64,000 nucleotides of DNA from Alphaproteobacteria bacterium. Lineage in GTDB: Bacteria; Pseudomonadota; Alphaproteobacteria; Bin95. The notes below the pieces were generated by a model. That model was not told the DNA's origin, searched no databases, and saw only the letters and a list, made by a program, of their open reading frames with translations. The position numbers and the translations under genes are program-made. Shown here in pieces: positions 24,137-39,206 of this stretch (positions are counted from its first letter, which is position 1; each line of letters starts with the position of its first letter). The stretch spans positions 5,056,001 to 5,120,000 of the forward strand of contig CBDBGH010000003.1 of NCBI GenBank assembly GCA_965205265.1. Reading direction: 5' to 3'.

Positions 24137-24369
24137 AGGGATCCACAAGGAAAGGGTGGGGTCGATGAAGGAAACGCAGGGCCGGGACGGATCGAACGGC
24201 CGGCGCCGGGAGCCGGCGAGCGCGGGCGGGGCGTTTCGCGATGCCGGCCTGGAGAGATTCCTTTCGGAATCAAACGCGGCAGACGCCGGCCTGTTGCTGG
24301 TCGAAGAGCGCCGATCCGTGTCCTGATCCACTGTCAGGCGCCGTCCGGCATTCGTGTGCCGGGTTGAAG

Positions 24370-24470
24370 GAAGATGCTGGAGGCCGGCATCGCCTTCGAC
24401 ATGAAGTCGGGCAGCGTCGCCTCGATCCTGGAGGCGCTGGGCCCGCGACGCCCGGCCCGTATTCGAGGAC
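24370..24470 (+). pseudogene. possible hipB/XRE-HTH remnant
   Basis: Reads MLEAGIAFDMKSGSVASILEALG, resembling the C-terminal half of an XRE HTH, directly upstream of hipA; no intact N-terminal helices. Confidence 0.4.
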
Positions 24471-24489
24471 ATCAGGAAGGAATCCCAGG

Positions 24490-25893
24490 ATGACGCTCCG
24501 GGTCTGGGTCAATGATCGCCCTGTAGGCCGCCTCGACAGACATGGCAGGGGGACGACCTTCGTCTATGACAGGGATGTCGATCCGGCAGACGCCGTGAGC
24601 CTGACGATGCCCGTCAGGATCGCCTCCTATGACAGCGCCTGGGGCCTCCTTCCGGTTTTCGACACGAACCTGCCGGAAGGGATCCTGCGGCACAGGATCG
24701 AGACGTCCCTCGCGAAGGCCCATGGGCGCGTGGAACCGATCGACATCCTCCGCCTGACCGGGCGGAACCAGATCGGGCGCATCAGGGTCCTGCCGAAAGA
24801 TGAAGCCCCGGTGCGCCAGACTTCCGTCGGCAGCATCGACGAACTTCTCGAACGAAAGGCCACCCAGGCCCTGGTGGACCGGATGATGGACCGTTACGCA
24901 GCGCATTCCGGCGTGTCCGGGGCGATGCCGAAGGTCCTCGTCGAGACCGGTCCGGGCGCCGGGGCAGGGGACCGGGACGGCCGGGAGCCGCGGCATACGA
25001 TCCAGGCCCGGGCCTACATCCTCAAGTTCGACACGGAGGAACTCCCGGGCCTGTCCCTGAACGAGTTCTTCTGTCTTGAGGCGGCCCGGGAGGCCGGAAA
25101 CGACACGGCCCGGGCCCGGCTCAATGCCGACGGGCGCATGCTGGCCGTGCGCCGTTTCGACGGTGCCGACCCCGGATCGGGAACCGGGGCAGACTGGCGC
25201 CTCGGCTTCGAGGACCTCGCATCGCTCAACGCCAGGACGGCGCGGGACAAGTATTCCGGCAGCATGGAACGCGACCTCTTCAGGCGCGTCGGGGAGTTTT
25301 CCGGAGACCGCAGGAGGGAGAACCTGGAGGCCCTCTTCAGGCTCTGCGTTACCAATATCGCCATCCGGAACGGGGACGCGCACCTCAAGAACTTCGCCCT
25401 GCTGTTCGAGGATGCCGACAGGGGCCCGTTCACACTGGCCCCAGCCTATGACCTTGTGACCACCACGGCCTGGATCAAGGCGGACATGATGGCTCTGACC
25501 TTGGGGGGCTCGAAACGCTGGCCAAAGCCCTCCGCCGTCCGGCAGATGGGCGCCAGGGCCGGTCTGTCCCCGAAGGCAACCCGGGACATCGTCGCGGAGG
25601 TCGGGGCCGGCCTGCGCGCCGTCATGCCGGCCATGCTCGAGGCGTTCGAGGCGCATGGGGAGGGCGCGACCGGACGCAGGGTCGCGGCCTCCTGGAACGA
25701 AGGGCTCACAACGTCCCTCGGCGAGGAGCCGGGAATCGCGGCCACGAAACAGACCCGGGGCGGGCTTTCGCGGGGACAGGCAGGGGAACCGCCCGCTGAC
25801 GCGGTTGCCGCCTATCCTCCCGCAGTGGCAGGGAGCCGGTTCCTCCCGGAGCCGTCCCCGCCGGGTGACCCGACGGACCCGTTCAGTACATGA
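24490..25893 (+). CDS. hipA: HipA-family kinase toxin with N-terminal coupling domain
   Basis: VSLTMP..FDTNLPEG, SGVSGAMPK, RRFD, EDLASL, NGDAHLKNF, LAPAYD. Confidence 0.92.
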   Translation: MTLRVWVNDRPVGRLDRHGRGTTFVYDRDVDPADAVSLTMPVRIASYDSAWGLLPVFDTNLPEGILRHRIETSLAKAHGRVEPIDILRLTGRNQIGRIRVLPKDEAPVRQTSVGSIDELLERKATQALVDRMMDRYAAHSGVSGAMPKVLVETGPGAGAGDRDGREPRHTIQARAYILKFDTEELPGLSLNEFFCLEAAREAGNDTARARLNADGRMLAVRRFDGADPGSGTGADWRLGFEDLASLNARTARDKYSGSMERDLFRRVGEFSGDRRRENLEALFRLCVTNIAIRNGDAHLKNFALLFEDADRGPFTLAPAYDLVTTTAWIKADMMALTLGGSKRWPKPSAVRQMGARAGLSPKATRDIVAEVGAGLRAVMPAMLEAFEAHGEGATGRRVAASWNEGLTTSLGEEPGIAATKQTRGGLSRGQAGEPPADAVAAYPPAVAGSRFLPEPSPPGDPTDPFST

Positions 25894-26042
25894 TGTTTCC
25901 CGCAGACTTTGTGGCGGCCGTCCGTCGTTGAAAGAGCGGGGCCCCGGCGCGGGAATCCCCATAAATCGTCCCGGCAAGACAGTGGCGCCGGCAAATTTGA
26001 CTCTATGGTGCATCGATGGAGTCGATAGCCCGGAGGCACGGG

Positions 26043-27893
26043 ATGTCCACGCATGATTTCGGATCCGGTCCCGTAGCAGCCCATCGTCACCCGAATGGCG
26101 GCGGCTGGGTGGCCGAGACGGCATGGGTGGCCGACACGGTCTGGGTCGCGCCGGAGGCCACCGTGGCGGAATTCGCCCGGATATGGGACGAGGTAAGGTT
26201 GCTCGGGCGCGCCCGTGTATCCGGGCAGGCATGCCTGATGCAGCATGTCGTCGTATCGGGCGACGCTGCGGTGCGCGGCTCGGCGCGGGCGTTCGGGCAT
26301 GCCAGGATTGGCGGGCATGCCATCGTCGAAGGCCGGGCCACCCTGCTGGGCGGGGTAGTATTGGGAGGACACGCGCTCCTTTTCGGCTTTGCGGTAGCCT
26401 CGGGGCGTGCCGTTATGCAGGAGTGGTCACGGGTCGGCGGGGGCGCGGTCCTGGGCGGTCATGTGCATGTCCGCGGAGAGGCTCTGCTCGCCGGAATGTG
26501 TCAGGCCAGGGAGCACGCCGTGCTGGCAGGCCAGGTAAGGGCCATAGGCTCTTGCTATATCGGCGGCCACGCCGTGCTGGACGGAGTCGTGCGCATGGAT
26601 GGCAGTCCGGTTATCTGCGGCCATGTCGTGGTTTTCGGGTCGGGAGACGGCGTGCGGATCACCGGCCGGAGTCGACTTCAAGGGGCCCCCCGTATCAGCG
26701 GCAGCCCGCGGTTCATGGATGGGTGTTTCGTTTCGGGACATCCGGTGATCCGCGACAGGGTGGTCCTGCGCGACAAGGCGCGTGTCACCGGCGCGGCGCG
26801 GCTTGGCGACGATGTGCAGGTCACGGGCAACGGGGCCGTGGACGGGTCCGCGGAACTGCGCGGCGACCTGGTCGTGGATGGCGCCACGCGGCTCGGTGAC
26901 GACCTTGATGACCTCTTGCCCCCGCTGGACGCCGACGAGGGTCCGGGTCCCGCTGCAGCCGCAATGGAGCGGCAGGAAGTCACCGCGGGGTCGGCCGATG
27001 ACGAGAGGCGGCGGGCGGAATTCGACGAGATGCTGGAGGCGGCGGATTTCGGCTTGCCGGAAGAGGATGGACAGGACGGGGACCGGGGCGCGGCGCCACC
27101 GCGCGACGATGCGGAGCATGATGAGGAATGGGAGAGGTACAGACAGCGGCGGCTATGCCGGGTGTCGTCTCTCGAGACCGGGGGGCTGCGCGGGGATGCC
27201 GTGGATGGCGGACTGATTCTGAGCGCCGTTCCGCCGGCCCTGCGCCGGCCGAAGGAGCCGGAGCGGGCCGCGCCGGCCCGCCTGGAAGGGCCGGTCCCTT
27301 CCGAAGAGGCGCCGACGCAAGCGCCGTGGTGGCTTTCCGGCGCGGCGCCGACAATCGACGATATCCTCGAGCCTCTGGAGGCCTTGGCAAAAGAATTCGA
27401 GGATATCTCCGAACGCCCGGACGCCGCGGGACATGAGGAACCGGCTCCGGTGGAATTGATCTGCGTCAGCAGGGTTTCCCGGGAACACGGCCGGACCGGG
27501 TGGGCTACCCTGGCGGTCGGCCCCACGGAGGACGGCGGGGTAAGGGGCGGCTGGAATTCGGGGGACGCGCGGCGCCGCGCCGAGCTGATGTCGGTTATTG
27601 CGGGACTCGAGGCGCTGGAGGGCGCGGCGGATATCCGTGTGCGTTGTCCCAGTCACTATCTGCTGGACGGGGTCACCAATTGGGCGCGCGAGGCCCGCAC
27701 GAGGAACTGGCGCGGGAAACGCGGAACCAGGATTGCGCATGATGACCTGTGGCGCAGGCTCTTCGCCCTTACGGACGGGCGAAGCATAAAGTGGCTGTCC
27801 CGTCCGGACAGCGACAGCGCGGGGTGGACGGCCGTCCTGGCGGAAGCCGAACGGCAGGTCGCCGAAGCGCCCCGGGAAGATCGCACCTGGTGA
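26043..27893 (+). CDS. left-handed beta-helix (hexapeptide) protein fused through an acidic linker to a degenerate RNase H-like domain
   Basis: HRHPNGGGWVAETAWVAD then V.G.A hexapeptides; C-terminal RAELMSVIAGLEAL...SHYLLDGVTNW...DLWRRL...W. Confidence 0.75.
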   Translation: MSTHDFGSGPVAAHRHPNGGGWVAETAWVADTVWVAPEATVAEFARIWDEVRLLGRARVSGQACLMQHVVVSGDAAVRGSARAFGHARIGGHAIVEGRATLLGGVVLGGHALLFGFAVASGRAVMQEWSRVGGGAVLGGHVHVRGEALLAGMCQAREHAVLAGQVRAIGSCYIGGHAVLDGVVRMDGSPVICGHVVVFGSGDGVRITGRSRLQGAPRISGSPRFMDGCFVSGHPVIRDRVVLRDKARVTGAARLGDDVQVTGNGAVDGSAELRGDLVVDGATRLGDDLDDLLPPLDADEGPGPAAAAMERQEVTAGSADDERRRAEFDEMLEAADFGLPEEDGQDGDRGAAPPRDDAEHDEEWERYRQRRLCRVSSLETGGLRGDAVDGGLILSAVPPALRRPKEPERAAPARLEGPVPSEEAPTQAPWWLSGAAPTIDDILEPLEALAKEFEDISERPDAAGHEEPAPVELICVSRVSREHGRTGWATLAVGPTEDGGVRGGWNSGDARRRAELMSVIAGLEALEGAADIRVRCPSHYLLDGVTNWAREARTRNWRGKRGTRIAHDDLWRRLFALTDGRSIKWLSRPDSDSAGWTAVLAEAERQVAEAPREDRTW

Positions 27894-27909
27894 CCGGACC
27901 CCGGCGCTG

Positions 27910-28395
27910 TCATGGTCCGGTCCAGAGGCCGAGATCGTGCAGTTCGCGACGCAGGGACTCCGGAAGCCCGCCATCGTGGTGAACGCCGCCGGCGAGGTCC
28001 GGGGGAGCATCCCTGCCCTCGAGATAGCGCCAGCCGCGGAGGAAGCGCACCGGCCGCGGCTCGACCGCGACATGATGGGGCGAGCACATAATGGCGAAGT
28101 GATTTTCGAAGAACGGATCGTACCGGGTGGTGAATTCGCGCACCGGCTCCACCCCGACAAACGGCATCCGGAACATCGTATGGTTCCGATAGACGAAATA
28201 GACCGACCCGCCTTTCAGTTCATCGACCCTCCTGGGGCGCTGGCGCGCCCATGATCCGTAGAGGGTCCCCTGCCGTTGCCAGAGACGACAGCGGCGCAGC
28301 CAGACCTCCAGTGTCGTTCGCTCCCCGTCGAGGAACATCGGCAGCCGCTGCAGCAGGTGCAGTCGGCTGCTCATGCCGGAGAGGACCGGGTCCAT
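27910..28395 (-). CDS. DUF1489-like protein
   Basis: RPRRVDELKGGSVYFV...VEPRPVRFLRGWRYLEGRDAPPDL...LPESLRRELHDLGL; start 28395 or 28374. Confidence 0.75.
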   Translation of the reverse strand: MDPVLSGMSSRLHLLQRLPMFLDGERTTLEVWLRRCRLWQRQGTLYGSWARQRPRRVDELKGGSVYFVYRNHTMFRMPFVGVEPVREFTTRYDPFFENHFAIMCSPHHVAVEPRPVRFLRGWRYLEGRDAPPDLAGGVHHDGGLPESLRRELHDLGLWTGP

Positions 28396-28426
28396 TGCGC
28401 GGGCTGGGGAGTGTCCGGCAGGCCGG

Positions 28427-30769
28427 TCATGCGGGTCCCGTGATCCGCTCGAAGCTGTCCCGGACGACGTCCGGCCAGGGCGGGGGAACGCCGGACACCC
28501 CGAAATCGCCGCTCGCATCGTCCCGACCGGGGGCGGGACGGGGCGTGTCCGGAGCGTGCCGGTAGAGCCCGAGGACGCGCTTCGAGTCCGGCCGGGAAGC
28601 GGCAATGACCACGGCCATTGTCATGGGGCGCAGCAGGTCCGGATCCTGGGAGCCGGTCTTCAACCGACGGGAGAACCCCCAAAACCGGTGCAGGGTTGAC
28701 ATGACGCGTGAGGAGACGCTTTCCACGACAACGGCCGGCCCGCCGTCCTTCCAGACCGATGTGAGACGGCTCATGCCCTTGCGGATCGACGATCTGTAAC
28801 GTTCGGGTTCGGCCATCTTGAACACCGGATGGTTGACGAGATCCATGGCCAGGAACCGCTCAAGCTTTTCCTGCGGCATGCCGCCGGCCGCCATGGCGTT
28901 GACACGGTCCCGGAATGTCGCCCAGCGCGCCGGGTCATGCCCGAGATATTCCCAAGGGGTCATGTTGCCCTTGGCCTCGTTTTCCTCGATGCCGCAGAGC
29001 GTCTTGTTGTTGAAACTGTTCCTGTGGCTCGGGACCCGGGAACGGGGCCAGATATGGTCGATATTGTAGCGCGGGGTGCGGCCGAACAGGGCGTCGAAAG
29101 AAATGGTGGCCCCCGTGTAGGGGCACCGCTTGCCTGTTTCTACCCAGAGCAGCCAGCGCTCGATCTGGTTGTCGGAAGGCTTCCGGATGCCGTTCCTCGC
29201 AAGGTCGTCCTTGGCGGCGTTGCGCTGGACGATCCGCCGGCGGCGCGCGATCTCGGCGATCCGAGGGTCCGGGTCCATGGCCAATTCGGTGGCAAACAGC
29301 GCCCGTACACGGTCCGGGCGTCCGAACCGGTCGGAAAGCGAGCGGGCGAGCGTACACATCAGATGGAAGGAATCGGCAGGCCGGTTCCGGCCGTCTTCGG
29401 CGTTGTCCTCCTGGCCGGGGAACACCGTCCGGCGCCACTGCTTCCATTCCTCGGTGTTGAGCAGGGTCGAGAAGCGGATGCCGCGCTCCAGCTGCGGAAG
29501 TATCGTTTCGAGGGCTTCCGCAGAGAACGGTTCCGCCCCGGCGCTCATTTCGAGCGCGGCGAGCGCCTCGGCCCGCCGGGCGGACAGACCGTACTCGCGG
29601 CAGAACCGCTGGGCGGCCGCGCGGCGCAAGGCGAGGCGCTCACCGACGGGCCGGACGATCGGCCGGTTATTCCCGTTGGCCCGGTAGTCGGCCTCCCAAA
29701 GCAGACCGGAAACCCGTTCGCGTATCTCGTCCCTGCGCGGATGGCGGTTCCATCGCTCGCCGAAAGCGGTTTGCAGGGCAACCTCGACCGGGTTGGCGGT
29801 CAGGCCGGCCTCGCCACCCTCCTCGAAATTGAACCGGGGCGGAATGAGGGTGCGGGAGTTGGCCCGGCCAACCGTTCCGGCCTCGCCCAGGGTGCGCCAT
29901 GCCTCGTCCCAGGACAGCGCTGCGCTGTTTTCGAGGGCTTCCCTGGCCTTGCGGCGCCGCTCCTGGCCTATCGGCCCGAGAATGTCCCGCACCTCGTTCC
30001 AGGACAGGAAATGACGGGCGCGAAGGGCATCAAGCAGCGCCGTCCGTTCAGGGTCCGAAAGCCTTCGGTCCTGCGGATAGACGATCGAAAGCGCATTGAG
30101 CTTGTCGAGCATCTGCTTTTCACGGGCGAGCCAGGTGCTCTTGGGGCAGAGTGGGGCCCCCGGCACGAAGGGACATTGGCCCGGGAACCGGTTGGGCGTC
30201 CAACTGTGCGGGCTGTCGGGGACCAGCGCGGCCTTGAGGCTCTGCCGCACCCCCGGAGCGGACAGCCCGTCATGATGGACCGCCTGACTGTCCCAGAGGA
30301 CATCGAATTCCTTCAGGAGATCCTCGCGGCATCCGGGTGGGCCCGGGAGGCTGTCGCGCCCCGACAGGCCCGTCCGGACCGCGCTGCCGGAGGCGATATA
30401 GAGGTCCTCGCCACGGCGGTGCTGCACAAGCTGAAAGAGGAGCCGCCCGAATTCCCGGCGCGCGAGCGCCTCGCCCCGGGCGGCTCGCAGCCGCAGGTGA
30501 GCGAGATCGCCGGTATCCGCGACCAGCCAGCGCCACTCGGCGGTATGCTGGTCGGGCAGGAGGCGGTGGGCGGCAAGCAGGCGTCGGGCCTGCCTGCGCC
30601 GGCCCAGGCCGTATCGCCGGGCGGCGCGGCGACGCGCCGGTCCGGCGACGATGTCGACGGGTTCCAGGCCGACCGAAAGGATCCGGCCGCCGTCCCCGTC
30701 GCCATCGCGTTCGACCACGGCATAGCCGACAAGGTTCGGTTGGACATTGAAACCGAAGGTCAGGGTCAC
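28427..30769 (-). CDS. truncated type II-C Cas9 derivative (~780 aa): HNH intact, RuvC inactivated, no PAM-interacting domain
   Basis: RuvC-I-like FGFNVQPNLVGYAVVE; Arg-rich bridge; LRLRAARGEAL..EFGRLLFQLVQHRRG; GQCPF...PKSTWL...LNAL; HNH RCPYTG.TISFDALF...IDHIWPRSR...NSFNNKTLC...NEAKGNMTPWE; ends at PPPWPD; GTG start overlaps the upstream TGA. Confidence 0.88.
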   Translation of the reverse strand: MTLTFGFNVQPNLVGYAVVERDGDGDGGRILSVGLEPVDIVAGPARRRAARRYGLGRRRQARRLLAAHRLLPDQHTAEWRWLVADTGDLAHLRLRAARGEALARREFGRLLFQLVQHRRGEDLYIASGSAVRTGLSGRDSLPGPPGCREDLLKEFDVLWDSQAVHHDGLSAPGVRQSLKAALVPDSPHSWTPNRFPGQCPFVPGAPLCPKSTWLAREKQMLDKLNALSIVYPQDRRLSDPERTALLDALRARHFLSWNEVRDILGPIGQERRRKAREALENSAALSWDEAWRTLGEAGTVGRANSRTLIPPRFNFEEGGEAGLTANPVEVALQTAFGERWNRHPRRDEIRERVSGLLWEADYRANGNNRPIVRPVGERLALRRAAAQRFCREYGLSARRAEALAALEMSAGAEPFSAEALETILPQLERGIRFSTLLNTEEWKQWRRTVFPGQEDNAEDGRNRPADSFHLMCTLARSLSDRFGRPDRVRALFATELAMDPDPRIAEIARRRRIVQRNAAKDDLARNGIRKPSDNQIERWLLWVETGKRCPYTGATISFDALFGRTPRYNIDHIWPRSRVPSHRNSFNNKTLCGIEENEAKGNMTPWEYLGHDPARWATFRDRVNAMAAGGMPQEKLERFLAMDLVNHPVFKMAEPERYRSSIRKGMSRLTSVWKDGGPAVVVESVSSRVMSTLHRFWGFSRRLKTGSQDPDLLRPMTMAVVIAASRPDSKRVLGLYRHAPDTPRPAPGRDDASGDFGVSGVPPPWPDVVRDSFERITGPA

Positions 30770-31230
30770 GGGAGCCTGCCAGGGGAGACGTCGGCGGCAC
30801 CGGCCTCCCGGGAGGACGAGGAGGGGCGACCGAACTCCTCCTCCACTTCCTCGAGCCAGGTCTGCACGCAACGGCGCGCATGGGCGCGCTGGATTTCGTC
30901 CGCATCGGCATAGCCGGGGATGCGTGACCAGTCGCCTGTAGTGACGGCGCGGTGCGCGTCCGCCGGGGACAATACGGCTCCTCCGCCGCGCGAGCAGTGG
31001 ACCGCGAGGACCTGGTCGTCGCGCGTGGTTCCGGAATCATCGGACCAGTAGATGTAGTATTCGGAGCGCACGAATCCGTTGCGCTCGCGCCATTCGGCCT
31101 GCAGCCGGGCACGTTCGTTCATCCGGGTGTCGAAGCCGGCGGCGTCAACGGTCTTCCCGAGACTGTTGTACTGGTCATGCTGTGCCGCCGTCGGTCCGGG
31201 CAGCAGGGCGCTCCAGCGCGTGTAGGACAT
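30766..31230 (-). CDS. hypothetical protein, paralog of 31257-31685, coupled to the Cas9-like gene
   Basis: MSYTRWSALLP.PT.AQ...NGFVRSEYYIYW...DQVLAVH...DWSRIPGY...CV..W; GTGA overlap. Confidence 0.75.
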   Translation of the reverse strand: MSYTRWSALLPGPTAAQHDQYNSLGKTVDAAGFDTRMNERARLQAEWRERNGFVRSEYYIYWSDDSGTTRDDQVLAVHCSRGGGAVLSPADAHRAVTTGDWSRIPGYADADEIQRAHARRCVQTWLEEVEEEFGRPSSSSREAGAADVSPGRLP

Positions 31231-31256
31231 GGGTGATCTCCGGCCGGGAACCGCTG

Positions 31257-31685
31257 TCAGCCGCCGGTTTCCGGGGCGGGCGGTGCCGGGTATTTCGCGA
31301 CCACGTCCGCAATCCACTGGCCAACGCAGGCGCGGACATTGGCGCGCTGGACTTCCCCGCATTCCGTGTAGCCCGGCACGCAGGACCAGTCGTCACCGTC
31401 CAGCGCGTTCCGGGCCTGTGCCAGGGTGATCCGGGTGCGCGCCCAGGGGCCGCAATAATGGATGCAGAGAAGCTGGTCTTCGCATTTGTCTCCGGACCCG
31501 GCGTCCCAGTAGATGTAGTGGTCGGCGCGCACGAACCCGTTCGCCCGGCACCACTCGTCAATGCGCTCGCCGTAACTCTCGACCCATTCGAGCGGCGATC
31601 CCGCCCGGGCATAGAGGTCCAGATACGCATCGAGCTGGGCCTCCGTGGGTTCGGGGAGCAGACTGATCCAACGCGAGTAGGCCAT
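31257..31685 (-). CDS. hypothetical protein, paralog of 30766-31230
   Basis: MAYSRWISLLP.PT.AQ...NGFVRADHYIYW...DQLLCIH...DWSCVPGY...CV..W. Confidence 0.75.
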   Translation of the reverse strand: MAYSRWISLLPEPTEAQLDAYLDLYARAGSPLEWVESYGERIDEWCRANGFVRADHYIYWDAGSGDKCEDQLLCIHYCGPWARTRITLAQARNALDGDDWSCVPGYTECGEVQRANVRACVGQWIADVVAKYPAPPAPETGG

Positions 31686-31724
31686 GGTTCCTTCCCTTTG
31701 TCCGGCGTGCATCGGCGTGTCGGC

Positions 31725-32546
31725 TCAGCCGACTTCGCCGCCCCAGAGATCGGCGACGAAGATCTGCCATGCGATCCTCTCGCGAAGCAGCCAGCCCTCG
31801 ATCTCGCCCCTCGGGACGTCGGACAGAGGTCCCTGCGGATGCACGAGGTGCCAGAGTTGGTGTTCCCCGGTCTCGTCGGCAAGGGGGACGAAACCGCAGG
31901 ACCGGGCCAGGGCCTGGCTGTCCCGGGGGACCGCCCGGAGCATGTAGTGCTTGTGGAGGCGGTCATCGCCGGCGTTCTCGCCGGCGAGGATGAGGAGATC
32001 GGTTTTTTCCAGGTGCGCGTCCTCTCCGTTCACCAGGTAGTTGTCGGGGTTCCATGGCGTTGCGTTGCGGCCGATGAAAGCGCGCAGGCGCTTCAGCTCG
32101 CCGAGCAATTGCTCGGCGAGGACCTTGTCGCCGGTCGGCACGCGGCGGGCGGCGGGTCCGGCCGCTTCGCCGCCTTCCGGTTCTTCGGCCTCGCCGGCGA
32201 GAAGACCCCGCACGAGGGCATCGGCCCTTCGCGCCGCCTGCGGTGTCTTGCCGGGCCGGAAATTGCCATTGCCGTCCAGGGCCTCCAGGACGTCGTCGCG
32301 CACGGCCTCGAGAGCCTTGCGCATTTCGCCGTTCCGTGCGCGCAGCAGGTCGTTCTCCGCCGCCAGTTCGGGGGCGGCGCGCAGCAGGTCATGGTCCTCG
32401 GGCGACACCAGGATGGCGATCGCCTTGCGCCAGGCGCTGCTCTCGTCCGGGGCGTCATCGGGGAGAGGCCCGCGGAGCATGTAGCCGTTCGGGGCCCGGT
32501 CGATGAACCAGGGCGGCGGCGTGTGTCCTTCGATGTTCTTCATCAT
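31725..32546 (-). CDS. hypothetical protein (HTPPPW...D..L.RAAPEL N-terminus of phage/plasmid type)
   Basis: 273-aa ORF in the co-directional operon. Confidence 0.65.
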   Translation of the reverse strand: MMKNIEGHTPPPWFIDRAPNGYMLRGPLPDDAPDESSAWRKAIAILVSPEDHDLLRAAPELAAENDLLRARNGEMRKALEAVRDDVLEALDGNGNFRPGKTPQAARRADALVRGLLAGEAEEPEGGEAAGPAARRVPTGDKVLAEQLLGELKRLRAFIGRNATPWNPDNYLVNGEDAHLEKTDLLILAGENAGDDRLHKHYMLRAVPRDSQALARSCGFVPLADETGEHQLWHLVHPQGPLSDVPRGEIEGWLLRERIAWQIFVADLWGGEVG

Positions 32547-32767
32547 GATGCCCTATGGCGCTTCGGGCTGATGTCCCGGTCCTCCGCAAGTCCACCGTGC
32601 TGCGGGCAGCCTTCGCCGAGAAGGCGTTCATGGCCGCAGGCGCTGCACCGGAACAGCGCGGTCGTCCATCCGCATTCGGGGCAATGCCAGAGCCCCGCCG
32701 GCCGGTAGCGGCGGTGCCGGCAGACAACGCCCCAGACACGGGCGAGAAAGGTCGCGGCGACGATCAT
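32543..32767 (-). CDS. small zinc-ribbon protein
   Basis: CPECG...CSACG...CPQHG; ATGA overlaps on both sides. Confidence 0.6.
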   Translation of the reverse strand: MIVAATFLARVWGVVCRHRRYRPAGLWHCPECGWTTALFRCSACGHERLLGEGCPQHGGLAEDRDISPKRHRAS

Positions 32768-33009
32768 GCATCCCCGTCGTCGCTGAATTTGCAGTAGCTC
32801 CAGCCTCTCCAGCGCCGGTCGCGGCAGAAGACCTGGGGTTGCATGCTCGGAGACGGGCCGCGCGTTCCGCGGGCCAGGAAGAACCGGCCGGAGGGATAGT
32901 CGGTCTCGATCCGGATGTCGCGCAGCTGTTTCGACCGTTGCCGCCGGGCGGCGGCGGCTTCGTCCGTGCTTTCGTAGAACTGCACCCGAACGTTGATCGC
33001 CCTGCTCAT
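32764..33009 (-). CDS. small CRDxxWR-family protein (paralog 4)
   Basis: RVQFY...SGRFFL...VFCRDRRWRGWSYC. Confidence 0.7.
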   Translation of the reverse strand: MSRAINVRVQFYESTDEAAAARRQRSKQLRDIRIETDYPSGRFFLARGTRGPSPSMQPQVFCRDRRWRGWSYCKFSDDGDA

Positions 33010-33251
33010 TCCGGGAGACCCTCCGTTGGCCATACGCACCGGCTCCAGCCTCTCCAGCGCCGGTCCCTGCAGAACACCTTGCGCTGCGAGAGCGGATTGG
33101 CCTCGTCCGCCTTGCGGTACAGGAAGACCCGGCCGGACGCATGGTGAATGTCCGTCTCGACGGGCGCCCGCCTCGACAGTCTCTCCATGTCGGCGGCCGC
33201 AGCCTCGGAGGTCGTATAGAGGGCAACCCGGGAATCGTAGCTCGCGCTCAT
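33006..33251 (-). CDS. small CRDxxWR-family protein (paralog 3)
   Basis: RVALY...SGRVFL...VFCRDRRWRGWSRC.WP. Confidence 0.7.
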   Translation of the reverse strand: MSASYDSRVALYTTSEAAAADMERLSRRAPVETDIHHASGRVFLYRKADEANPLSQRKVFCRDRRWRGWSRCVWPTEGLPE

Positions 33252-33496
33252 GCCGCCGCCACCGATCTCGGCCACTCGCACCGGCTGACGACACGCCAGC
33301 GCCGGTCGCGGCAGAGCACCCGGCGTTCTTTCCACCAGAGGTTCGGCTCGTCCGGGTTGCGGGCCAGGAAGCGCTGGCCGGTGAGTCTGTGGACCCTGAC
33401 GTAAACTCTCTTGGGGTTCGAGAGTCCGCTGCGGGCGGCACAGGCGTCCCGCCGGGTCCCGTAGAACTGCACCCGGCGGTCGATGCCGCTGCTCAT
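33248..33496 (-). CDS. small CRDxxWR-family protein (paralog 2)
   Basis: RVQFY...TGQRFL...VLCRDRRWRVVSRC.WP. Confidence 0.7.
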   Translation of the reverse strand: MSSGIDRRVQFYGTRRDACAARSGLSNPKRVYVRVHRLTGQRFLARNPDEPNLWWKERRVLCRDRRWRVVSRCEWPRSVAAA

Positions 33497-34005
33497 GACG
33501 GCGGGCCGTCCGGCCATTGGCAGGCCGCGAAGGGACGCCACACCTTGTCCCGGCAGAGGGCGTGGCGCGCCAGGTAACCTGACCGGATCAGAAACCGGCT
33601 GTCGGAGACAGGATGGCGAGCGATCTGGATGTGCATTGTGGCCGGGTGCCCGTCGCGCTCCTCGACAGCGGCGAAATCGCTTCCGAAGAACAGCACTTCC
33701 TCCGGACAGGTGAGCAGGGCGTCGATGCGGTTGGCCATCTCGTTGGCCCTGGGGGCCAGCGGCAGTGGATCGCCGTTTCTGTGAGCGGCGTTGCTCATGT
33801 CCAGAAGCAGGGCGTTGCAGTCGGCCAGCGCGGCGCGAAGCCGGACATTCCGTTCCTCCAGTTCCTCCCAGCAGAACGGGCAGATGGCGCCGTCGCGGCC
33901 CCAGTCATGGCGGGAGCCCAGTCTGGCGTCGCAAAGCTCCTTCAGCTTGGCCTGGGCGGCCTCGCTGCCCATGTCCACTTCGTGCCTGTAGCAGCCCCAG
34001 CCCAT
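33493..34005 (-). CDS. CRDxxWR-family protein with N-terminal Cys/coiled-coil extension (paralog 1)
   Basis: CYRH...CPFC, coiled coil, then SRFL...LCRDKVWR..AC.WP; first gene after the promoter. Confidence 0.7.
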   Translation of the reverse strand: MGWGCYRHEVDMGSEAAQAKLKELCDARLGSRHDWGRDGAICPFCWEELEERNVRLRAALADCNALLLDMSNAAHRNGDPLPLAPRANEMANRIDALLTCPEEVLFFGSDFAAVEERDGHPATMHIQIARHPVSDSRFLIRSGYLARHALCRDKVWRPFAACQWPDGPPS

Positions 34006-34094
34006 GGGTCTCACTCCCCGGTTGCAATCGTTCGTTCGGCGGCCATTCGCGCAGGCTGTTCCGGCGGCCCATGCGATGCCGGTCCTGAGCATGC

Positions 34095-34148
34095 AGTTTA
34101 CCGGCAGCGGGCAATTATGTCAATCCGATTGTCATGATAAGCGGATTG
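34095..34148 (-). promoter_or_regulatory. sigma70 promoter plus operator copy 4 driving the Cas9-derivative operon
   Basis: Minus-strand TTGACA (34123-34118)-N17-TAAACT (34100-34095); CAATCCGATTG-tcatga-TAAGCGGATTG at 34121-34148 overlaps the -35. Confidence 0.75.
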
Positions 34149-34275
34149 CGGTTTTGTCCTCCAGATCGCGGGAGGGCACTGCGTTCATGGGCGATTTCCC
34201 TCCCTCCTGCCTTGCCCTTGGAGAGCGTCAAGCGCCTTGTCCCGGAAGCGGGCGCACGGGGAAGAACAATGCCGG

Positions 34276-34569
34276 TCAGGGTTCCATGGTGGAGTCGGGC
34301 TCCGCGGCCGTCGCGAGACCGGGAACCTCCTCCCGGAAAAAACGGCGCAGGCGGGACTTCATCGTCCCCCAATTGTCAAGGCCGCGCAGACAGTCCTCTA
34401 CGCCTTCCTTGACCCGGTCGGGGACCGGGCAAGCGTCGCCGGGCTCGAAGAGAAAGCGCTCGGGACGGCTCGGGCTCCAGGGGGTCTGCACGACATGGCC
34501 GATCTCGGCGCCTTCCGGGGTGGCCACTGCGGCCCGGTTGCCTGTTCGGGCGGAAACGGTGACTTGCAT
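34276..34569 (-). CDS. small hypothetical protein
   Basis: AAGGAG RBS; ends DSTMEP. Confidence 0.6.
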   Translation of the reverse strand: MQVTVSARTGNRAAVATPEGAEIGHVVQTPWSPSRPERFLFEPGDACPVPDRVKEGVEDCLRGLDNWGTMKSRLRRFFREEVPGLATAAEPDSTMEP

Positions 34570-34620
34570 GGGCGCTCCTTACGGAGTTTTCAAAGGGACT
34601 TGCAATAGTGAGTTGGCGGC

Positions 34621-34962
34621 TCACGCCACGGACCCGGTCTCGCTCCCCACGCTCTCCTTGGCGAAGGCCACGGCGTCCTTGAGCTGTTCGGCGGTCGCCG
34701 GCGTGGCGTGGAACCAGGCGACTGGCGGATGCGGCCGGACGGCGCTTTCGGCGAAGAGGGCCTCGACGCCGGCAATCAGCCGGGCGTTGATCTCCCGCAG
34801 TCGTGCGGCCTCCCTCTCCGCCGCATCGGCAATGCCGGCATGGACATAATCGACTTCCCTTGACGGATAGTCGCAGGTCCAGAGCCGCAGGCGCGGCGGC
34901 GGGTTCTTCGCGGTCTGCACATAGTGGGGAAGGCCAACGGCCGATTCCAGCTGAGCGGTCAT
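34621..34962 (-). CDS. small hypothetical protein
   Basis: Start MTAQLE overlaps the upstream stop. Confidence 0.55.
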   Translation of the reverse strand: MTAQLESAVGLPHYVQTAKNPPPRLRLWTCDYPSREVDYVHAGIADAAEREAARLREINARLIAGVEALFAESAVRPHPPVAWFHATPATAEQLKDAVAFAKESVGSETGSVA

Positions 34963-35420
34963 CAGGGTGTCTCCGTCCTTCCCGACTCGGGTGCCGGGTC
35001 TTCGCCGATGTGCTGGAGGATGATGAACCGGGCATCGACGACCGCGCACAGCGGTAGCAGCGCCAGGAGGAAGATGCAGGCAGCCGGGTAGAGAAGCGGC
35101 AGACCCGGTTCGGCGTCCGGCGAGAGAATCTGCGTGGGAAGCGTGAATGCCCGGAGACCGGCCTCAAACACCATGATGCCGACCAGAAACACGACGGAGT
35201 AGATTGCGGCAAGGAGACCGAGGGTAGTGGGCTGGCGCCATGGCTTGACGGCGGACCGCACCCAGCCGTGGCGCAGGGCATCCCCGACAGGCCCCAGGGC
35301 GGGGACCATGTAGATGAGCATGACGGAAAGCGGGTCGACGACGGGATCCAGAAGCAGGCCGACGGCGGTCACCAGGAATACGGTCTTGACGACCAGGATG
35401 ACGAAGGTGGGGCCGTTCAT
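34962..35420 (-). CDS. membrane protein (~4 TM)
   Basis: Four hydrophobic segments; ATGA coupling. Confidence 0.65.
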   Translation of the reverse strand: MNGPTFVILVVKTVFLVTAVGLLLDPVVDPLSVMLIYMVPALGPVGDALRHGWVRSAVKPWRQPTTLGLLAAIYSVVFLVGIMVFEAGLRAFTLPTQILSPDAEPGLPLLYPAACIFLLALLPLCAVVDARFIILQHIGEDPAPESGRTETP

Positions 35421-36055
35421 GGCCGTGTTCCTTGCGGACGTTGATTCAGACCGGGCTCGGGGTGCGACCGAACCGGCTTCGAGGCTGCGGACATCACGAG
35501 CGCCGCGCGCCTGTGGGCGGCGAGGGCGTCTATGATGTCCAGCACCAATTGCTGCAGCCGCCTCTCGGAGGGCACGGGATCCAGCCACTCGAACTCGATC
35601 GCCGCTGCGCCCGCCCGGTCGTAGAAGACGCCGCTGAGCAGATCCGCCTGTCCCTGGCCGGCCGAAACCCGGTGCGGGTCTTCGCTAAGGTCAACCAGCC
35701 GGCAGCGGAAACGGGGCGCCCAGGTGTGGACGAGATAGGTCCGCCGCTCGCCGCTCGGCATGGGAAGACCGTGGGCGATCAACCAGCGGTCCCGACGCCA
35801 CTTCGGCTCCGGGGGCGTCTGGCCGAGCAGGCGGACGATGCGCATCTGAATGCGCGGCGGAACCTTATGGAGGTCCGCGGCCCAGCGCCTGATGCGGAAT
35901 CCCGGCACCCGGAGTTTCCGGGCAAGGGCGTGCAGGGACGGTTGCGGGAACACGAGGCGTCCCAGGCTGTCCCGGCCCGGACGCCCGCACAGGGCGCGCG
36001 CAAGGTCGAGAAAGGCTTTCCTGGAGCGGAATTCCGAAGGATTGTTCCCGGTCAT
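35417..36055 (-). CDS. hypothetical protein with HTH-like N-terminus and YLVHT..PRF domain
   Basis: ALARKLRV..FRIRRW; RTYLVHTWAPRFRCRLV...FEWLDPVP. Confidence 0.6.
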   Translation of the reverse strand: MTGNNPSEFRSRKAFLDLARALCGRPGRDSLGRLVFPQPSLHALARKLRVPGFRIRRWAADLHKVPPRIQMRIVRLLGQTPPEPKWRRDRWLIAHGLPMPSGERRTYLVHTWAPRFRCRLVDLSEDPHRVSAGQGQADLLSGVFYDRAGAAAIEFEWLDPVPSERRLQQLVLDIIDALAAHRRAALVMSAASKPVRSHPEPGLNQRPQGTRP

Positions 36056-36732
36056 CCAGGCGGCTCCGGCGAAGGGCCTGCGCTCGGGGACTCGTCCGGG
36101 CCGTCGGCCGGAGCCCCGAGACCGCGGGCTTTCCCCATCATGCGCGCCAGGACATGTTCCTGAAGCTCCATTATCCAGACGCGGTCGGTGCGCCCATCGG
36201 CGGAGTCGCGCCAGATCGCGGCTTGCTGGGCCATGGAGACCGCCGCGCCCAGATAGGCGGGAGTCGGTGTATGGAGGTCGAGCAGGCACCACATGACGCA
36301 GGACCGGACAGCTCCGAAATGGGGCACCGGGGTTGCGGGCAGTGCAGCGATCCGGTCGCGCAGCCTGATCGCCTCCATCCCGAAGGCCTGCGGCTCGCCG
36401 GCCTCGCCGTTGCCGGCCAGCCTTGCGAGCAGGGAGGCGGCCTTTGTGACAACGGGGTCCTCGAGCAGGGACGGGGTTCCCTGCCGCTGGACAAACCCTT
36501 CTTCCGACCATTCCCACGGGCCGGCGAGCGGACTGGCGTCGTCGGTGAACAGCCAGTGCCACCATGCGGCCCGCCTGTCGGCCGTCATGGCCTGCAGCAG
36601 CGCGACGAGCGTTCCGCCGGTCCGCTCGTTCTGCCTGCCGAGTTGCCCGGCGAGTGCATGGCGCGGCATCCGGTATCGTTCCTGATCGGTCAGGATACCG
36701 GATTGCAGCTCAGGGACCGGGTCCGTCATCAT
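36052..36732 (-). CDS. hypothetical protein, one copy of a helical domain shared with 36710-37741
   Basis: LQAMTADRRAAWWHWLF..DASPL. Confidence 0.65.
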   Translation of the reverse strand: MMTDPVPELQSGILTDQERYRMPRHALAGQLGRQNERTGGTLVALLQAMTADRRAAWWHWLFTDDASPLAGPWEWSEEGFVQRQGTPSLLEDPVVTKAASLLARLAGNGEAGEPQAFGMEAIRLRDRIAALPATPVPHFGAVRSCVMWCLLDLHTPTPAYLGAAVSMAQQAAIWRDSADGRTDRVWIMELQEHVLARMMGKARGLGAPADGPDESPSAGPSPEPPG

Positions 36733-37741
36733 GCGGTTCTCCTGTGGGTTCCGGAGCCCCTTCCGGGTCGAGCCGGAAATGCATGGCGAGCAACGCATCC
36801 GTTTCGGCGTTGGCCTGGGCGACCGGGTCCAGGGCGGCCGCCTCCCATCCCGCAACGGAGCGCAGCATGCCGACGGCCATCGAGAGGAACCGCGGGTCCC
36901 TGCGGTCGGGCTGGCCGGCCAGCCAGATCGCGGCCTCGCGGACAGCATGGAGCGCCGGCAAGGAGGAAGTGCGGGTTCTGCACAGTGTGTCGTGCCGCTC
37001 GACGAGATCGGGCGCGGGCTCGCCGCGGGCAAGGCGTCCGAAGCAGGCGCCCAGCATGGCGACGGGCTCGTCATGGAACCAGTTGCGGGCGGGACTTTCG
37101 GCACCGGAGAAAGCCCAGTGCCGCCATTCCGCGAATTCCTTTTCGGAGGTCCGGCTGAGCCGGGAAACCAGGCTCGAGGCCAGCTCGTCATTGCGCATGA
37201 CCAGAAATTCCGGCCGGTCGTCGGCCTGGGCAAAGCGCCGGCTGGCCGCTGCCATCGAGCGAAGGTTCCGCCTGATCGCGGCCTCGAGTTCGCCGGCCGG
37301 CAGACCCGACCCCCATACCCGGGCGCCGGCGGCCTGGGCGACCGCAGGCGTCAGCATTCCGGGAACCGACATCCGGCGGTCTCCCGAGAGCCAGAGGGCG
37401 GCCTGATGGGCTACCGCCGGGGCCGGCTGCAGGGGCTCGCGGGTTGCGCGCAGGCGTTCGGCAAGAGAGCGGAACGCCTCGGGCCGGTGCGGTTCGGCGC
37501 GCCCGAACTCGTCGAAAAGGCGCACGGCTTCAGGAAGAACGGGATGGCTGCGCCATGAGGAGGGCAGCGGGCTCTCGGGAGAGTCGAACAGCCATGCGCA
37601 CCAGGCGGCGAAGCCCTGCGGTGTCATCGCCTCCAGTCTGGCCGCGATGAGGCGCTCGCGTTCGCGGTTTTCAGCCCAGAGACCGAGACCGGTCCCCGGT
37701 GCCTGCCGGTCTTCGTGAGACGTTCCGGTATTCGGGTTCAT
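36710..37741 (-). CDS. hypothetical protein with two copies of the W..W.F...SP domain
   Basis: LEAMTPQGFAAWCAWLFDSPESPL and FAEWRHWAFSGAESPA; ends DDGPGP. Confidence 0.65.
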   Translation of the reverse strand: MNPNTGTSHEDRQAPGTGLGLWAENRERERLIAARLEAMTPQGFAAWCAWLFDSPESPLPSSWRSHPVLPEAVRLFDEFGRAEPHRPEAFRSLAERLRATREPLQPAPAVAHQAALWLSGDRRMSVPGMLTPAVAQAAGARVWGSGLPAGELEAAIRRNLRSMAAASRRFAQADDRPEFLVMRNDELASSLVSRLSRTSEKEFAEWRHWAFSGAESPARNWFHDEPVAMLGACFGRLARGEPAPDLVERHDTLCRTRTSSLPALHAVREAAIWLAGQPDRRDPRFLSMAVGMLRSVAGWEAAALDPVAQANAETDALLAMHFRLDPEGAPEPTGEPHDDGPGP

Positions 37742-37807
37742 CTGTGCGGCCTCGTGCGGCAAGGTAGAGGGCAACAGCCTAGCATCCCGCCAAGAAAAAG
37801 CCGTGGC

Positions 37808-38392: not shown

Positions 38393-38439
38393 GGCACTCT
38401 CCTCCCGAGGTCCTTATGACTGCCTTCCGACACGGTCCG

Positions 38440-38493
38440 AGCCTACCGTTCCTTTAGACATATGTCAAGTGGCTTGTTATTGTAAGCGGATTG
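38440..38493 (-). promoter_or_regulatory. sigma70 promoter plus operator copy 5
   Basis: Minus-strand TTGACA (38468-38463)-N17-TAGGCT; CAAGTGGCTTG-ttattg-TAAGCGGATTG at 38466-38493. Confidence 0.7.
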
Positions 38494-38729
38494 CAATGAA
38501 AAGCGGCTTATGGGAAAACGGGGTTTGCGGAACGGCAGGACAGGCGCGGGACGCTTGAGCTGGCCGCGGTTGCCCCGGCAGGGTTGGAAACCCGGAGGCT
38601 GGTGTCGATGCCCCGTGAGTTCAGCCCCGATGGAGCGGTTCGTGCCCGAGAGAATGTCGGAAGTGCCGCCGTCGCGGAGATAGCCGCAGCGGGGTCACCG
38701 GATGCCGCTGAACGACATGATTGTCGTCA

Positions 38730-38969: not shown

Positions 38970-38993
38970 GCCTCCGGGTTTCCAGCCCTGCCG

Positions 38994-39203: not shown

Positions 39204-39206
39204 CCC

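Follow-up and report, generated by a model that had tools for sequence, protein, structure and literature searches.

Organization of the locus

Ten genes lie on the minus strand of an alphaproteobacterial chromosome and extend to 27910 from a promoter and an operator at 34095–34148 (positions are those of the window, the whole stretch of 64,000 nucleotides that was analysed). The features are as follows:

34122–34147, no strand: operator, a 26-bp palindrome with the consensus AATCCGATTG-N6-CAATCGGATT, unique in the window
34112–34140, minus: putative embedded promoter P1, TTATCA (within the operator), 17 nt, TAATTG, proposed from the layout
34095–34123, minus: promoter P2, TTGACA, 17 nt, TAAACT, with 10 of 12 consensus matches
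33493–34005, minus: g1, 170 aa, a Cys/His-rich N-terminal part and a C-terminal CRDxxWR domain
33248–33496, minus: g2, 82 aa, CRDxxWR paralog, pI 11.6, ATGA overlap with g1
33006–33251, minus: g3, 81 aa, CRDxxWR paralog by sequence comparison
32764–33009, minus: g4, 81 aa, CRDxxWR paralog with a metagenomic relative, P0009
32543–32767, minus: g5, 74 aa, zinc-ribbon-like with four Cys, CPEC...CSAC being read in the sequence
31725–32546, minus: g6, 273 aa, orphan, conserved in its N- and C-terminal parts and variable between them
31257–31685, minus: g7, 142 aa, YIYW paralog with an ortholog, P0016, at 56% identity
30766–31230, minus: g8, 154 aa, YIYW paralog by sequence comparison
28427–30769, minus: g9, 780 aa, Cas9 derivative (Cas9d) with HNH_4 and TIGR01865 matches
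27910–28395, minus: g10, 154–161 aa, DUF1489 protein with a match to Pfam PF07370

The gene list and gene order agree with an earlier sequence-only reading of this DNA, all of whose elements, promoter and operator included, were found in place. It had described the genes as joined mostly by ATGA or GTGA overlaps, which holds for six of the nine junctions (ATGA at g1/g2, g2/g3, g3/g4, g4/g5 and g5/g6, and GTGA at g8/g9), the remaining three being gaps of 39, 26 and approximately 31 nt. Two of its starts were revised. The start of g1, put at 34092, is probably 34005 instead, because an RBS-like GGGGAG lies upstream of 34005, and Cas9d starts at GTG 30769 rather than at TTG 30871.

The CRDxxWR paralogs g2, g3 and g4 (81–82 aa) share 28–45% identity, and the YIYW proteins g7 and g8 share 38% identity (E 2e-30). 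The same 170-aa protein as g1 was found in a public protein library (P0008). The orphan g6 has one ortholog, P0005, at 68% identity, and a sample of 400 genomes from the class yielded no relative. The Pfam zinc-ribbon matches of g5 stayed under the cut-off, and the fold search with the AF2 model of g3 (pLDDT 84.7) gave no match. Apart from Cas9d and DUF1489, no gene of the operon matched any Pfam, PHROG, PADLOC or NCBIfam family; therefore, we regard the module as undescribed. Profile searches with the ten proteins gave no match to an HTH family, and none of the proteins matched the known Acr, Aca or anti-restriction families.

A shared operator marks a mobile region

P2 was the sole sigma-70-like match in 27000–36800, where shuffled sequence gave a mean of 0.6. 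The genome has 6 copies of the exact operator arms at N14 spacing, whereas spacings of 0–60 gave 0.58 on average. With at most one mismatch, 17 sites were found in this genome, 0 with the reversed control, and 0–2 per genome in the 36 other genomes of the family. The operator family comprises 17–22 sites, depending on whether the search is strict (one mismatch) or relaxed, and 21 of the 22 relaxed sites fall within positions 4,787,710–5,319,297 (approximately 530 kb) of the contig, C3. At most operator sites, a -35 hexamer is followed after 17 nt by a TAnnnT box, and the P1-type layout, in which the -35 lies within the left half-site and the -10 follows 17 nt on, is seen again at most of the 22. 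P2, a strong promoter, overlaps the operator, which about 20 other promoters of the region share. An arrangement of this kind, with 17–22 sites confined to one region, fits, we believe, repressor-controlled early or establishment genes, as judged from the sequence.

The region that holds the operator family (C3:4.79–5.32 Mb) is strain-specific and contains an array of 28 redundant tRNAs, IS copies, two HipA genes and a resolvase, with a conjugation cluster and a relaxase in the wider setting. The part of the window from 20 to 40 kb was unique among 17 genomes of the genus, HipA-like stretches excepted. A complete type II-C locus with the nearest CRISPR array lies 37 kb from Cas9d, within the operator-marked region; its Cas9 (1056 aa, L005:7293–10463) is a full-length homolog with RuvC and HNH, and an IS has cut the 3' end of its gene, so that the conserved last ~14 residues are gone.

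It is unlikely, in our view, that Cas9d is a DNA-binding regulator or nickase, guided by RNA or protein, that serves the replication, transfer or ssDNA processing of the element itself and plays no part in conflict. Such a role would suit a gene embedded in the repressor regulon of the element, and one whose neighbours include many nucleic-acid enzymes (RecJ, RNase H, an RNase T-like exonuclease and a GyrB-like protein). However, no origin or relaxase is close by. The nearest TrwC relaxase, with its coupling protein, lies at C3:4.73 Mb, approximately 325 kb off. The Cas9d family is also extremely rare, as would be expected of fast-evolving conflict genes more than of core functions of an element.

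Cas9d is a shortened, RuvC-dead Cas9

Cas9d matched HNH_4 (4e-16) and, over residues 148–642, the NCBIfam Cas9 model TIGR01865 with 186 bits, above the cut-off of 100. It resembles canonical type II-C Cas9 (the resident protein, 6jdq and 8ja0) in its identity of 34–38% over approximately 725 aligned residues, with 38% to the full-length resident Cas9, and in the order RuvC-I, bridge helix, REC, RuvC-II, HNH, RuvC-III. The Arg-rich bridge helix and the REC lobe are kept, and residues 35–480 align with the resident Cas9. Unlike canonical Cas9, it has lost the RuvC catalytic residues: Asp of motif I is replaced by Asn (His in the ortholog P0002), Glu of motif II by Leu, and the stretch aligned with motif III is without His or Asp. 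In contrast, H572, N584, N588 and N597 of the HNH domain are invariant across 8 aligned Cas9 sequences, and the HNH domain is predicted from these residues to be catalytically complete.

The C-terminal WED/PAM-interacting (PI) part is also missing, since the alignment stops approximately 280 residues before the end of full-length Cas9, and the PDB profile matches to type II-C Cas9 structures end at about chain residue 787 of 1082. A family-specific insertion of approximately 30 aa lies in REC. In the tree, Cas9d and P0002 were placed among the Cas9s of the genus itself, on a long branch (1.62). No cas1, cas2 or tracrRNA lies beside Cas9d, and no CRISPR array was found in the window. The search with the 36-nt repeat (blastn-short) gave no repeat or anti-repeat match of at least 12 nt in the window and three 11-mers at chance level; against the whole genome, it found only the resident tracrRNA (C3:5130508–5130529). 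There was no Rfam match in 26000–38500, and a leader structure was absent (z +1.38). The phage matches to Cas9d amounted to a single weak HNH match.

P0002 is a metagenomic ortholog with 59% identity to Cas9d and with RuvC and C-terminal losses identical in kind. The two proteins share 82% identity in HNH and 72–78% in REC residues 161–240, and the REC stretches conserved in the pair have just 25–42% identity to the resident Cas9. The divergence of REC and the long branch argue, at the level of sequence comparison, for a new specificity of the pair and not for mimicry. The contigs of P0002 and of the g6 and g7 orthologs are of 7340 bp each, and the three genes appear to lie on one 7.3-kb metagenomic contig. 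The 273-aa protein, a YIYW protein and the Cas9 derivative therefore appear to form a conserved core; this synteny outside the present genome rests on that single contig.

This ortholog bears directly on the idea that Cas9d is a decaying cas9 duplicate among chance open frames, without function. The loss of the RuvC motifs and of the C-terminus would agree with decay, as would the IS interruption of the neighbouring cas locus, but the conservation of P0002, with matching boundaries and conserved HNH and REC, contradicts it. Cas9d has 780 open codons with coding-type GC3, the partner genes have orthologs as well, and the genes of the operon appear to be translationally coupled. We consider decay very improbable.

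Comparison with the phage-encoded II-C2 variant

Judged by the published descriptions, the closest known system is variant II-C2, a phage Cas9 that has an inactivated RuvC but an active HNH, described as a 'biomimicry anti-CRISPR' (Altae-Tran et al. 2023, PMC10910872; Makarova et al. 2025, PMC12669027). In the sections of these papers that describe it, II-C2 agrees with Cas9d in several respects: Cas9d is derived from type II-C, its three RuvC motifs are inactivated and its HNH is intact, no array adjoins it, and it lies on mobile DNA in a cell that also carries an active-type II-C locus. It differs from II-C2, as described there, in being shortened and without WED and PI, in lacking a nearby tracrRNA whose anti-repeat matches the repeats of the host, and in having no SNF2 helicase neighbour (no SNF2 domain was found by Pfam in the 57 ORFs of the window that were scanned). 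It is carried by a chromosomal mobile region that is rich in IS copies and has a tRNA array, not by a recognisable phage, and it is the ninth of ten genes in an operon with conserved orphan partners and DUF1489.

Cas9d might be a pure decoy of the II-C2 type, which would sequester the tracrRNA:crRNA of the type II-C system resident in the same genome, the other nine genes being unrelated cargo. We think this doubtful. In its favour are the pattern of a dead RuvC with a live HNH and no adjoining array, the cognate type II-C locus in the same genome, the place of Cas9d in the tree, and the published proposal for phage RuvC-dead Cas9 in the parts that describe it (PMC10910872, PMC12669027, PMC11656645). 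However, Cas9d has no tracrRNA or anti-repeat of its own, no SNF2 helicase among the neighbours scanned and no WED/PI; its REC lobe is diverged and carries the insertion, and g6 and g7 apparently accompany it in the second contig.

DUF1489 and a possible defence nuclease

The last gene of the operon matched PF07370 with 82.7 bits (cut-off 25) over profile positions 14–138. Its model (pLDDT 78, pTM 0.73) suggests a PUA-like fold of the YTH/ASCH/EVE kind. The best fold matches were YTH, ASCH, EVE, THYN1, the McrB N-domain, VcaM4I and a 5hmC-specific endonuclease, with Z scores of 5.1–6.7 (the caution line of the tool is 8), rmsd of 3.4–4.7 Å and 101–126 aligned residues; Foldseek gave a best probability of 0.90 (an ASCH domain), with E values of 0.018 or worse. 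The genome has three DUF1489 copies, g10 included. A mobile copy at C3:4.972 Mb adjoins a C5 methylase, and a mobile copy in another genome (G001) adjoins a DPPW-motif methylase, which from its motif is presumably MT-A70. Of the 37 genomes of the bacterial family, 34 have a housekeeping DUF1489 copy, which shows that DUF1489 proteins are not specific to defence.

These results raise a further possibility, of modest probability in itself, that the operon encodes a nuclease for defence or for competition between elements. The HNH domain of Cas9d would cut and DUF1489 would act in trans as a modified-base reader that finds the target, with the 273-aa and YIYW proteins as structural partners, by analogy with the EVE-HNH enzymes and other modification-dependent (type IV) restriction. 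In EVE-HNH enzymes such as VcaM4I (PDB 6yex, which matched the DUF1489 model with Z 5.3), a PUA-like reader likewise goes with an HNH nuclease, whereas here the putative reader and the nuclease are separate genes and the nuclease sits on a whole Cas9 scaffold. The conserved HNH residues, the fold matches of DUF1489, the methyltransferases next to its two other mobile copies and a conserved multi-gene core typical of defence systems all point in this direction. Against it, the fold matches stay below Z 8 and above a Foldseek E of 0.01, DUF1489 and Cas9d were linked at one locus only, the housekeeping copies are widespread, and a strong repressible promoter with a run of tiny orphan paralogs is unusual for restriction-like systems.

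A tentative role in anti-defence

Taken together, we tentatively favour the reading that the ten genes form a conflict operon, early and repressor-controlled, which belongs to a large mobile region and whose Cas9d interferes with type II-C immunity. We speculated that absence or titration of the repressor, such as might occur when the element enters a new cell, would switch the operon on. Cas9d, which would neither recognise a PAM nor open double-stranded DNA, could use its REC lobe and bridge helix to bind single-stranded nucleic acid or guide RNA, and might nick the bound nucleic acid with its HNH domain. By competing for guide RNAs or their targets, it would disturb type II-C CRISPR immunity. 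The CRD proteins, which are small and basic, may be co-factors or further independent inhibitors, as may the acidic YIYW and 273-aa proteins. The absence from Cas9d of the WED part, which in full-length Cas9 holds the repeat:anti-repeat duplex, counts against this reading.

The operon shares features with leading-region anti-defence islands and Acr-Aca operons, in the parts of the reports that describe them (Samuel et al. 2024, PMC11541004; PMC13551039): a strong, repressible promoter that carries an inverted repeat and drives several small orphan genes, which evolve fast and lie on mobile DNA. It holds, however, no HTH Aca-like repressor gene and no known anti-defence family.

The sequence-only reading had proposed an undescribed anti-defence or establishment module. 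Its novelty is borne out, and its setting in strain-specific mobile DNA, the shared operator and the published precedent (an array-less phage Cas9, dead in RuvC but active in HNH, proposed as an anti-CRISPR in the parts of PMC10910872, PMC12669027 and PMC11656645 that treat it) speak for it. The anti-defence part is weakened, since there is no Acr, Aca or anti-restriction match among the proteins and no tracrRNA or anti-repeat nearby, and an HNH nuclease with a putative PUA-like reader is equally defence-like. We also counted against the anti-defence reading that a conserved core of several genes and a putative PUA-like neighbour are reminiscent of defence systems. We believe that an anti-defence role for the operon is plausible, that a nuclease-based defence role ranks little below it and is nearly as likely, and that Cas9d is probably a weapon or a shield in the conflicts between mobile DNA and CRISPR defence.

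One spacer of the resident type II-C locus matches a TrbI-like conjugation gene on the same chromosome at 30 of 30 positions. The loss of the last ~14 residues of the resident Cas9 to the IS could by itself explain why this self-targeting spacer is tolerated.

Structure of the operon

The ten minus-strand genes (g1 to g10) form one string from 34005 to 27910, as the sequence-only reading had described, in a window (C3:5056001-5120000) with a G+C content of approximately 67%. Its statement that the genes are joined mostly by ATGA or GTGA overlaps was also borne out when the sequence was read directly. The 4-nt overlaps were found at six of the nine junctions, with ATGA at g1/g2, g2/g3, g3/g4, g4/g5, and g5/g6 and GTGA at g8/g9; at the remaining three, the genes are separated by 39, 26, and approximately 31 nt.

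The CRD paralogs g1–g4 have in common a domain of approximately 80 aa that ends in C-R-D-x-x-W-R...C, with identities of 28–45%. The g5 protein carries a CPEC...CSAC zinc-ribbon signature, with Pfam matches under the cut-off, g6 encodes a protein of 273 aa, and the YIYW paralogs g7 and g8 share 38% identity (E 2e-30). In Pfam, g9, the Cas9 derivative Cas9d, matched HNH_4 (4e-16), and g10 matched DUF1489 (2.6e-23). The eight other operon proteins had no match in Pfam, PADLOC, PHROGs, or NCBIfam. The leader RNA (34006-34090) was unstructured, and the operon is closed at its end because a convergent gene stops at 27893:

26016-27893, plus strand, RNase H / hexapeptide-repeat gene (625 aa), convergent on the operon end

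The hexapeptide-repeat (beta-helix) segments of this protein match the phage families phrog_5070 and phrog_7964, and its RNase H domain is C-terminal.

Cas9d is a shortened, RuvC-dead Cas9

Cas9d starts with GTG at 30769 and has 780 aa. It is co-linear with the 1056-aa Cas9 of the resident type II-C locus to the right of the window (L005:7293-10463), with 34% identity over 814 columns and 38% over 725 aligned residues. Motif I reads FGFN in Cas9d and FGFD in the full-length Cas9, motif II has Leu in place of Glu, and the motif III stretch (DLLRPMTMAVVIA, against DHRHHAVDALVVA in the full-length protein) has neither the His nor the Asp. The HNH residues H572, N584, N588, and N597 were invariant in 8/8 sequences, and Cas9d also retains an Arg-rich bridge helix and a REC lobe. 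Because Cas9d ends shortly past a PWP motif that itself follows RuvC-III, approximately 280 WED/PI residues are missing. The PDB profile matches of Cas9d to type II-C Cas9 structures stop at chain residue ~787. Cas9d scored 186 bits against the NCBI Cas9 model (cut-off 100), over residues 148–642 only, and pipelines therefore label it as Cas9. No paper on a Cas9 homolog without WED/PI was found in open-access text.

Among 8000 candidates scored from 5.8 billion proteins, one close relative was found, P0002, with 807 aa and 59% identity. Neither 37 family genomes nor phage and plasmid records yielded a further close relative; in those records, the protein-level matches were distant Cas9/HNH proteins only. 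When genome_contigs, viral_contigs, and metagenome_contigs were searched with the Cas9d pair, they returned distant Cas9/HNH loci only, and plasmids gave no nucleotide match. P0002 has lost the same RuvC motifs as Cas9d, is truncated at the same point, and carries the same REC insertion of approximately 30 aa. Their identity peaks in HNH at 82% and is 72–78% over REC residues 161–240, a stretch in which either protein shares only 25–42% identity with the resident Cas9. The two grouped as a single clade (100/100), with a long branch of 1.62, in a tree of 8 sequences and one outgroup, which is indicative only. In the same small tree, this pair joined among the type II-C Cas9s of the genus, with a placement that lacked resolution.

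By these comparisons, Cas9d is a selected, re-specialised protein. A pseudogene was considered and rejected, because P0002 has the same losses, HNH and REC are conserved, and the pair forms its own clade; decay as an explanation takes a very small share of the probability left over by the readings of function weighed below.

Partner proteins

The 273-aa protein and the YIYW pair each had one relative, P0005 (68% identity) and P0016 (56% identity). P0002, P0005, and P0016 are each recorded on a 7340-bp contig of the same source class, and we infer that this is one contig with at least three module genes. As to the synteny search called for by the sequence-only reading, the orthologs of g6, YIYW, and Cas9d probably stand together on that contig. 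The profile of the 273-aa protein had no credible match in a sample of 400 genomes of the class.

Among 1.84 billion representatives, 7 proteins matched the CRD profile, three of them from the window itself. P0009, on a 589-bp contig, is a close relative of g4, and P0010 and P0012 are distant CRD relatives. P0011 was rejected as a repetitive sequence and a probably spurious match. The predicted model of the CRD domain was confident (pLDDT 84.7), but none of its fold matches was convincing: SPOR-type domains came first (Z 3.8), and the BFVD matches had E values of 0.18 or worse. The single-domain CRD copies are strongly basic (pI 9.2–11.6), and the YIYW and 273-aa proteins are acidic. In the ESM Atlas, the leads for g6 were weak and pointed to early proteins of phages (Phage_P22_Y8K6, 0.88; Ead_Ea22, 0.83), g7 had no match, and a PDB sequence search gave only noise for g6. 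The CRD, YIYW, and 273-aa proteins are new and very rare families.

DUF1489 as a candidate reader of modified nucleic acid

The source genome has three copies of DUF1489. The first is a housekeeping gene present in 34/37 family genomes, the second is g10 of the operon, and the third lies in mobile DNA, as does a copy in the related genome G001:

L033:10220-10651 (C3:4972220-4972651), third copy in the source genome, 41–45% identity to g10
L036:1501-1950, copy in mobile DNA of G001, adjoining a DPPW-motif methylase with a Gam-like gene

The third copy adjoins a C5 DNA methylase with nucleoside deoxyribosyltransferases. A model was predicted from a 21-sequence alignment (pLDDT 78, pTM 0.73). Its best structural matches were almost all PUA-like readers (Z 5.1–6.7), including YTH, ASCH, EVE/THYN1, the McrB N-domain, VcaM4I, and a 5hmC endonuclease; the Foldseek matches were weak. 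Consistent as the match list is, its scores are modest, and we treat the predicted PUA-like fold as a lead. The methyltransferase neighbours and this model suggest that DUF1489 may read modified nucleic acid. No DUF1489 match was found by PDB sequence search and no DUF1489 papers in open-access text, and the PUA-like model would be the first structural lead for a protein present in most genomes of this alphaproteobacterial family. The complex prediction for Cas9d with DUF1489 scored 0.00, which gives no verdict either way.

The promoter, the operator family, and the mobile region

The promoter and operator proposed before g1 were both read at 34095-34147. The promoter (TTGACA-17-TAAACT, 34123->34095, minus strand) is the sole sigma-70-like site within 27000-36800, and it overlaps a 26-bp palindrome that, in its exact form, occurs once in the window. 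The copies of the palindrome inside the window are as follows:

34122-34147, copy overlapping the operon promoter
63242-63267, second copy

The exact palindrome arms occurred six times in the whole genome at a spacing of 14 nt, against a mean of 0.58 at the other spacings from 0 to 60. Further inner bases were common to five of these six sites, giving the consensus AATCCGATTG-N6-CAATCGGATT. With at most one mismatch per arm, 22 sites were found genome-wide, 21 of them in C3:4,787,710-5,319,297, which is 9% of the genome. An independent count with at most one mismatch gave 17 sites in the source genome and 0 in the reversed control; among the relatives, G010 had 1, G013 had 2 (overlapping), and the other 34 family genomes had 0. 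Most operator sites have a -35-like TTGnnn within the left half-site, followed after 17 nt by a TAnnnT box. At the operon, this embedded promoter is weak (TTATCA / TAATTG) and is directly followed by the consensus-like promoter. Given the site counts and the promoter layout, the operator is real. It marks the regulon of one large accessory region, of which the operon is a member. The operator family, with 17–22 copies in one strain-specific region of approximately 530 kb, looks like the regulon of a giant mobile element under one putative global repressor. The delimitation of this mobile region, whose limits are defined by the operator sites only, is a result of independent worth.

The region around the operon is strain-specific. 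The stretch from 20 to 40 kb of the window had matches in 3 of 16 other genus genomes, all of them in HipA-like stretches, and probes at 4.90 and 5.01 Mb matched mostly IS copies. Of four sequence runs compared with the window, all of them contigs, three contained pieces 100% identical to it and are therefore the same strain, and the one listed as RNA covered only tRNA pieces. A search for a duplicated tRNA end that would bound the island gave none for tRNA-Ser, tRNA-Ile, or tRNA-Lys. The mobile features are as follows:

6250-10343 and 58264-61549, two inverted IS21-type copies of ~4.1 kb (IstA-like, IstB-like)
21051-22439 and 24241-25893, plus strand, two HipA-type kinase genes
22497-23222, resolvase gene between both HipA genes
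56461-58116, DDE_Tnp_1 transposase gene abutting the right IS21-type copy
C3:4.73 Mb, TrwC relaxase and coupling protein, just left of the first operator site
C3:4.76 Mb, Dot/Icm-type conjugation cluster

The IS21-type element has approximately 16 copies in the genome.

The resident type II-C system

A type II-C locus with cas9, a tracrRNA anti-repeat, cas1, and a 12-repeat array lies 37 kb to the right. It is inside the operator-marked region, with operator sites at 5,119,242 and 5,137,516, and its cas genes are separated by an insertion:

L005:5484-7315 (C3:5125484-5127315), 1.8-kb IS with ~11 genome copies, between cas9 and cas1

This IS is missing from that place in G010, G011, G012, and G015. 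It replaces the conserved last ~14 Cas9 residues, and the protein ends in ...RSPKKGCTS where its relatives end in ...DPIGRxRPAND. Spacer 4 (L005:3544-3573) matches 30/30 a TrbI-like gene at C3:4761995-4762024, which belongs to the Dot/Icm-type conjugation cluster of the same chromosome, and is thus self-targeting. The self-targeting is tolerated, and the cause may be either damage to Cas9 or something that inhibits it. Spacers 3 and 10 are identical. The operator flank at 34141-34151, a conspicuous position, shares 11 nt (GCGGATTGCGG) with positions 4–14 of the CRISPR repeat; the identity is at chance level (BLAST, E 24) and was rejected as meaningful.

Possible function of the operon

To our knowledge, mobile elements have rarely recruited Cas proteins to other tasks, and we know of no RuvC-dead Cas9 lineage in print other than II-C2. 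Cas9d would be a second such lineage and a more stripped one, with conserved orphan partners and neither WED/PI nor its own RNA gene. It would reveal the abilities of the Cas9 REC-HNH core without PAM recognition, a matter that bears on anti-CRISPR mechanisms, Cas9 evolution, and compact nickase scaffolds. In PMC10910872, PMC12669027, and PMC11656645, II-C2 is the name now given to a RuvC-dead, HNH-active phage Cas9 without an array, proposed to be a sponge for host crRNAs via its own tracrRNA. Our locus is alike in its catalytic pattern, its mobile carrier, and a type II-C system in the same cell, but it differs in having its own conserved partners, no tracrRNA, no SNF2 helicase among the 57 window ORFs scanned with Pfam, and no WED/PI domains. 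A pure decoy of the II-C2 type has a share of the remaining probability, as has a function in DNA handling by the element itself.

The functional inference of the sequence-only reading, an anti-defence or establishment module, is a reasonable hypothesis. Our preferred reading, although we hold it to be less likely than not, is a counter-defence or establishment operon in which Cas9d would interfere with type II-C immunity. A defence-type nuclease, in which the HNH domain would be paired with the PUA-like reader, we consider somewhat less likely again.

It is quite improbable that Cas9d is a natural PAM-blind, HNH-only Cas9 with the missing PAM-reading end supplied in trans. One possibility under this reading is that Cas9d takes its crRNAs from the type II-C array of the element itself and cleaves the incoming ssDNA of rival conjugative elements; the TrbI-like conjugation gene is matched by one spacer. 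Alternatively, Cas9d would be gated on a modified base by DUF1489, the PUA-like protein encoded downstream. If a PAM-blind Cas9d were true, Cas9-derived effectors would gain a new functional class, whose protein partners (the 273-aa and YIYW proteins) are absent from every known CRISPR system.

Other features of the window

The window also carries a tRNA array:

38894-45696, plus strand, 28 tRNA genes for all 20 amino acids

It is interrupted by an NTP_transf_8 nucleotidyltransferase gene (42015-43097) and has no anticodon beyond those of the 58 tRNAs elsewhere in the genome. RecJ, RNase H, and an RNase T-like exonuclease are encoded as well. Seven tandem or near-tandem genes matching DUF6878 (228–323 aa, 4792-16465, minus strand) form another expanded paralog set, on the strand of the operon. 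A pentapeptide-repeat protein is encoded directly upstream of a GyrB-like topoisomerase subunit of 735 aa (49995-53631, plus strand), with an ankyrin-repeat gene on the opposite strand to this pair. A 74-nt tandem repeat with 2.5 copies and 84% matches was found at 3492-3677 in apparently non-coding DNA.
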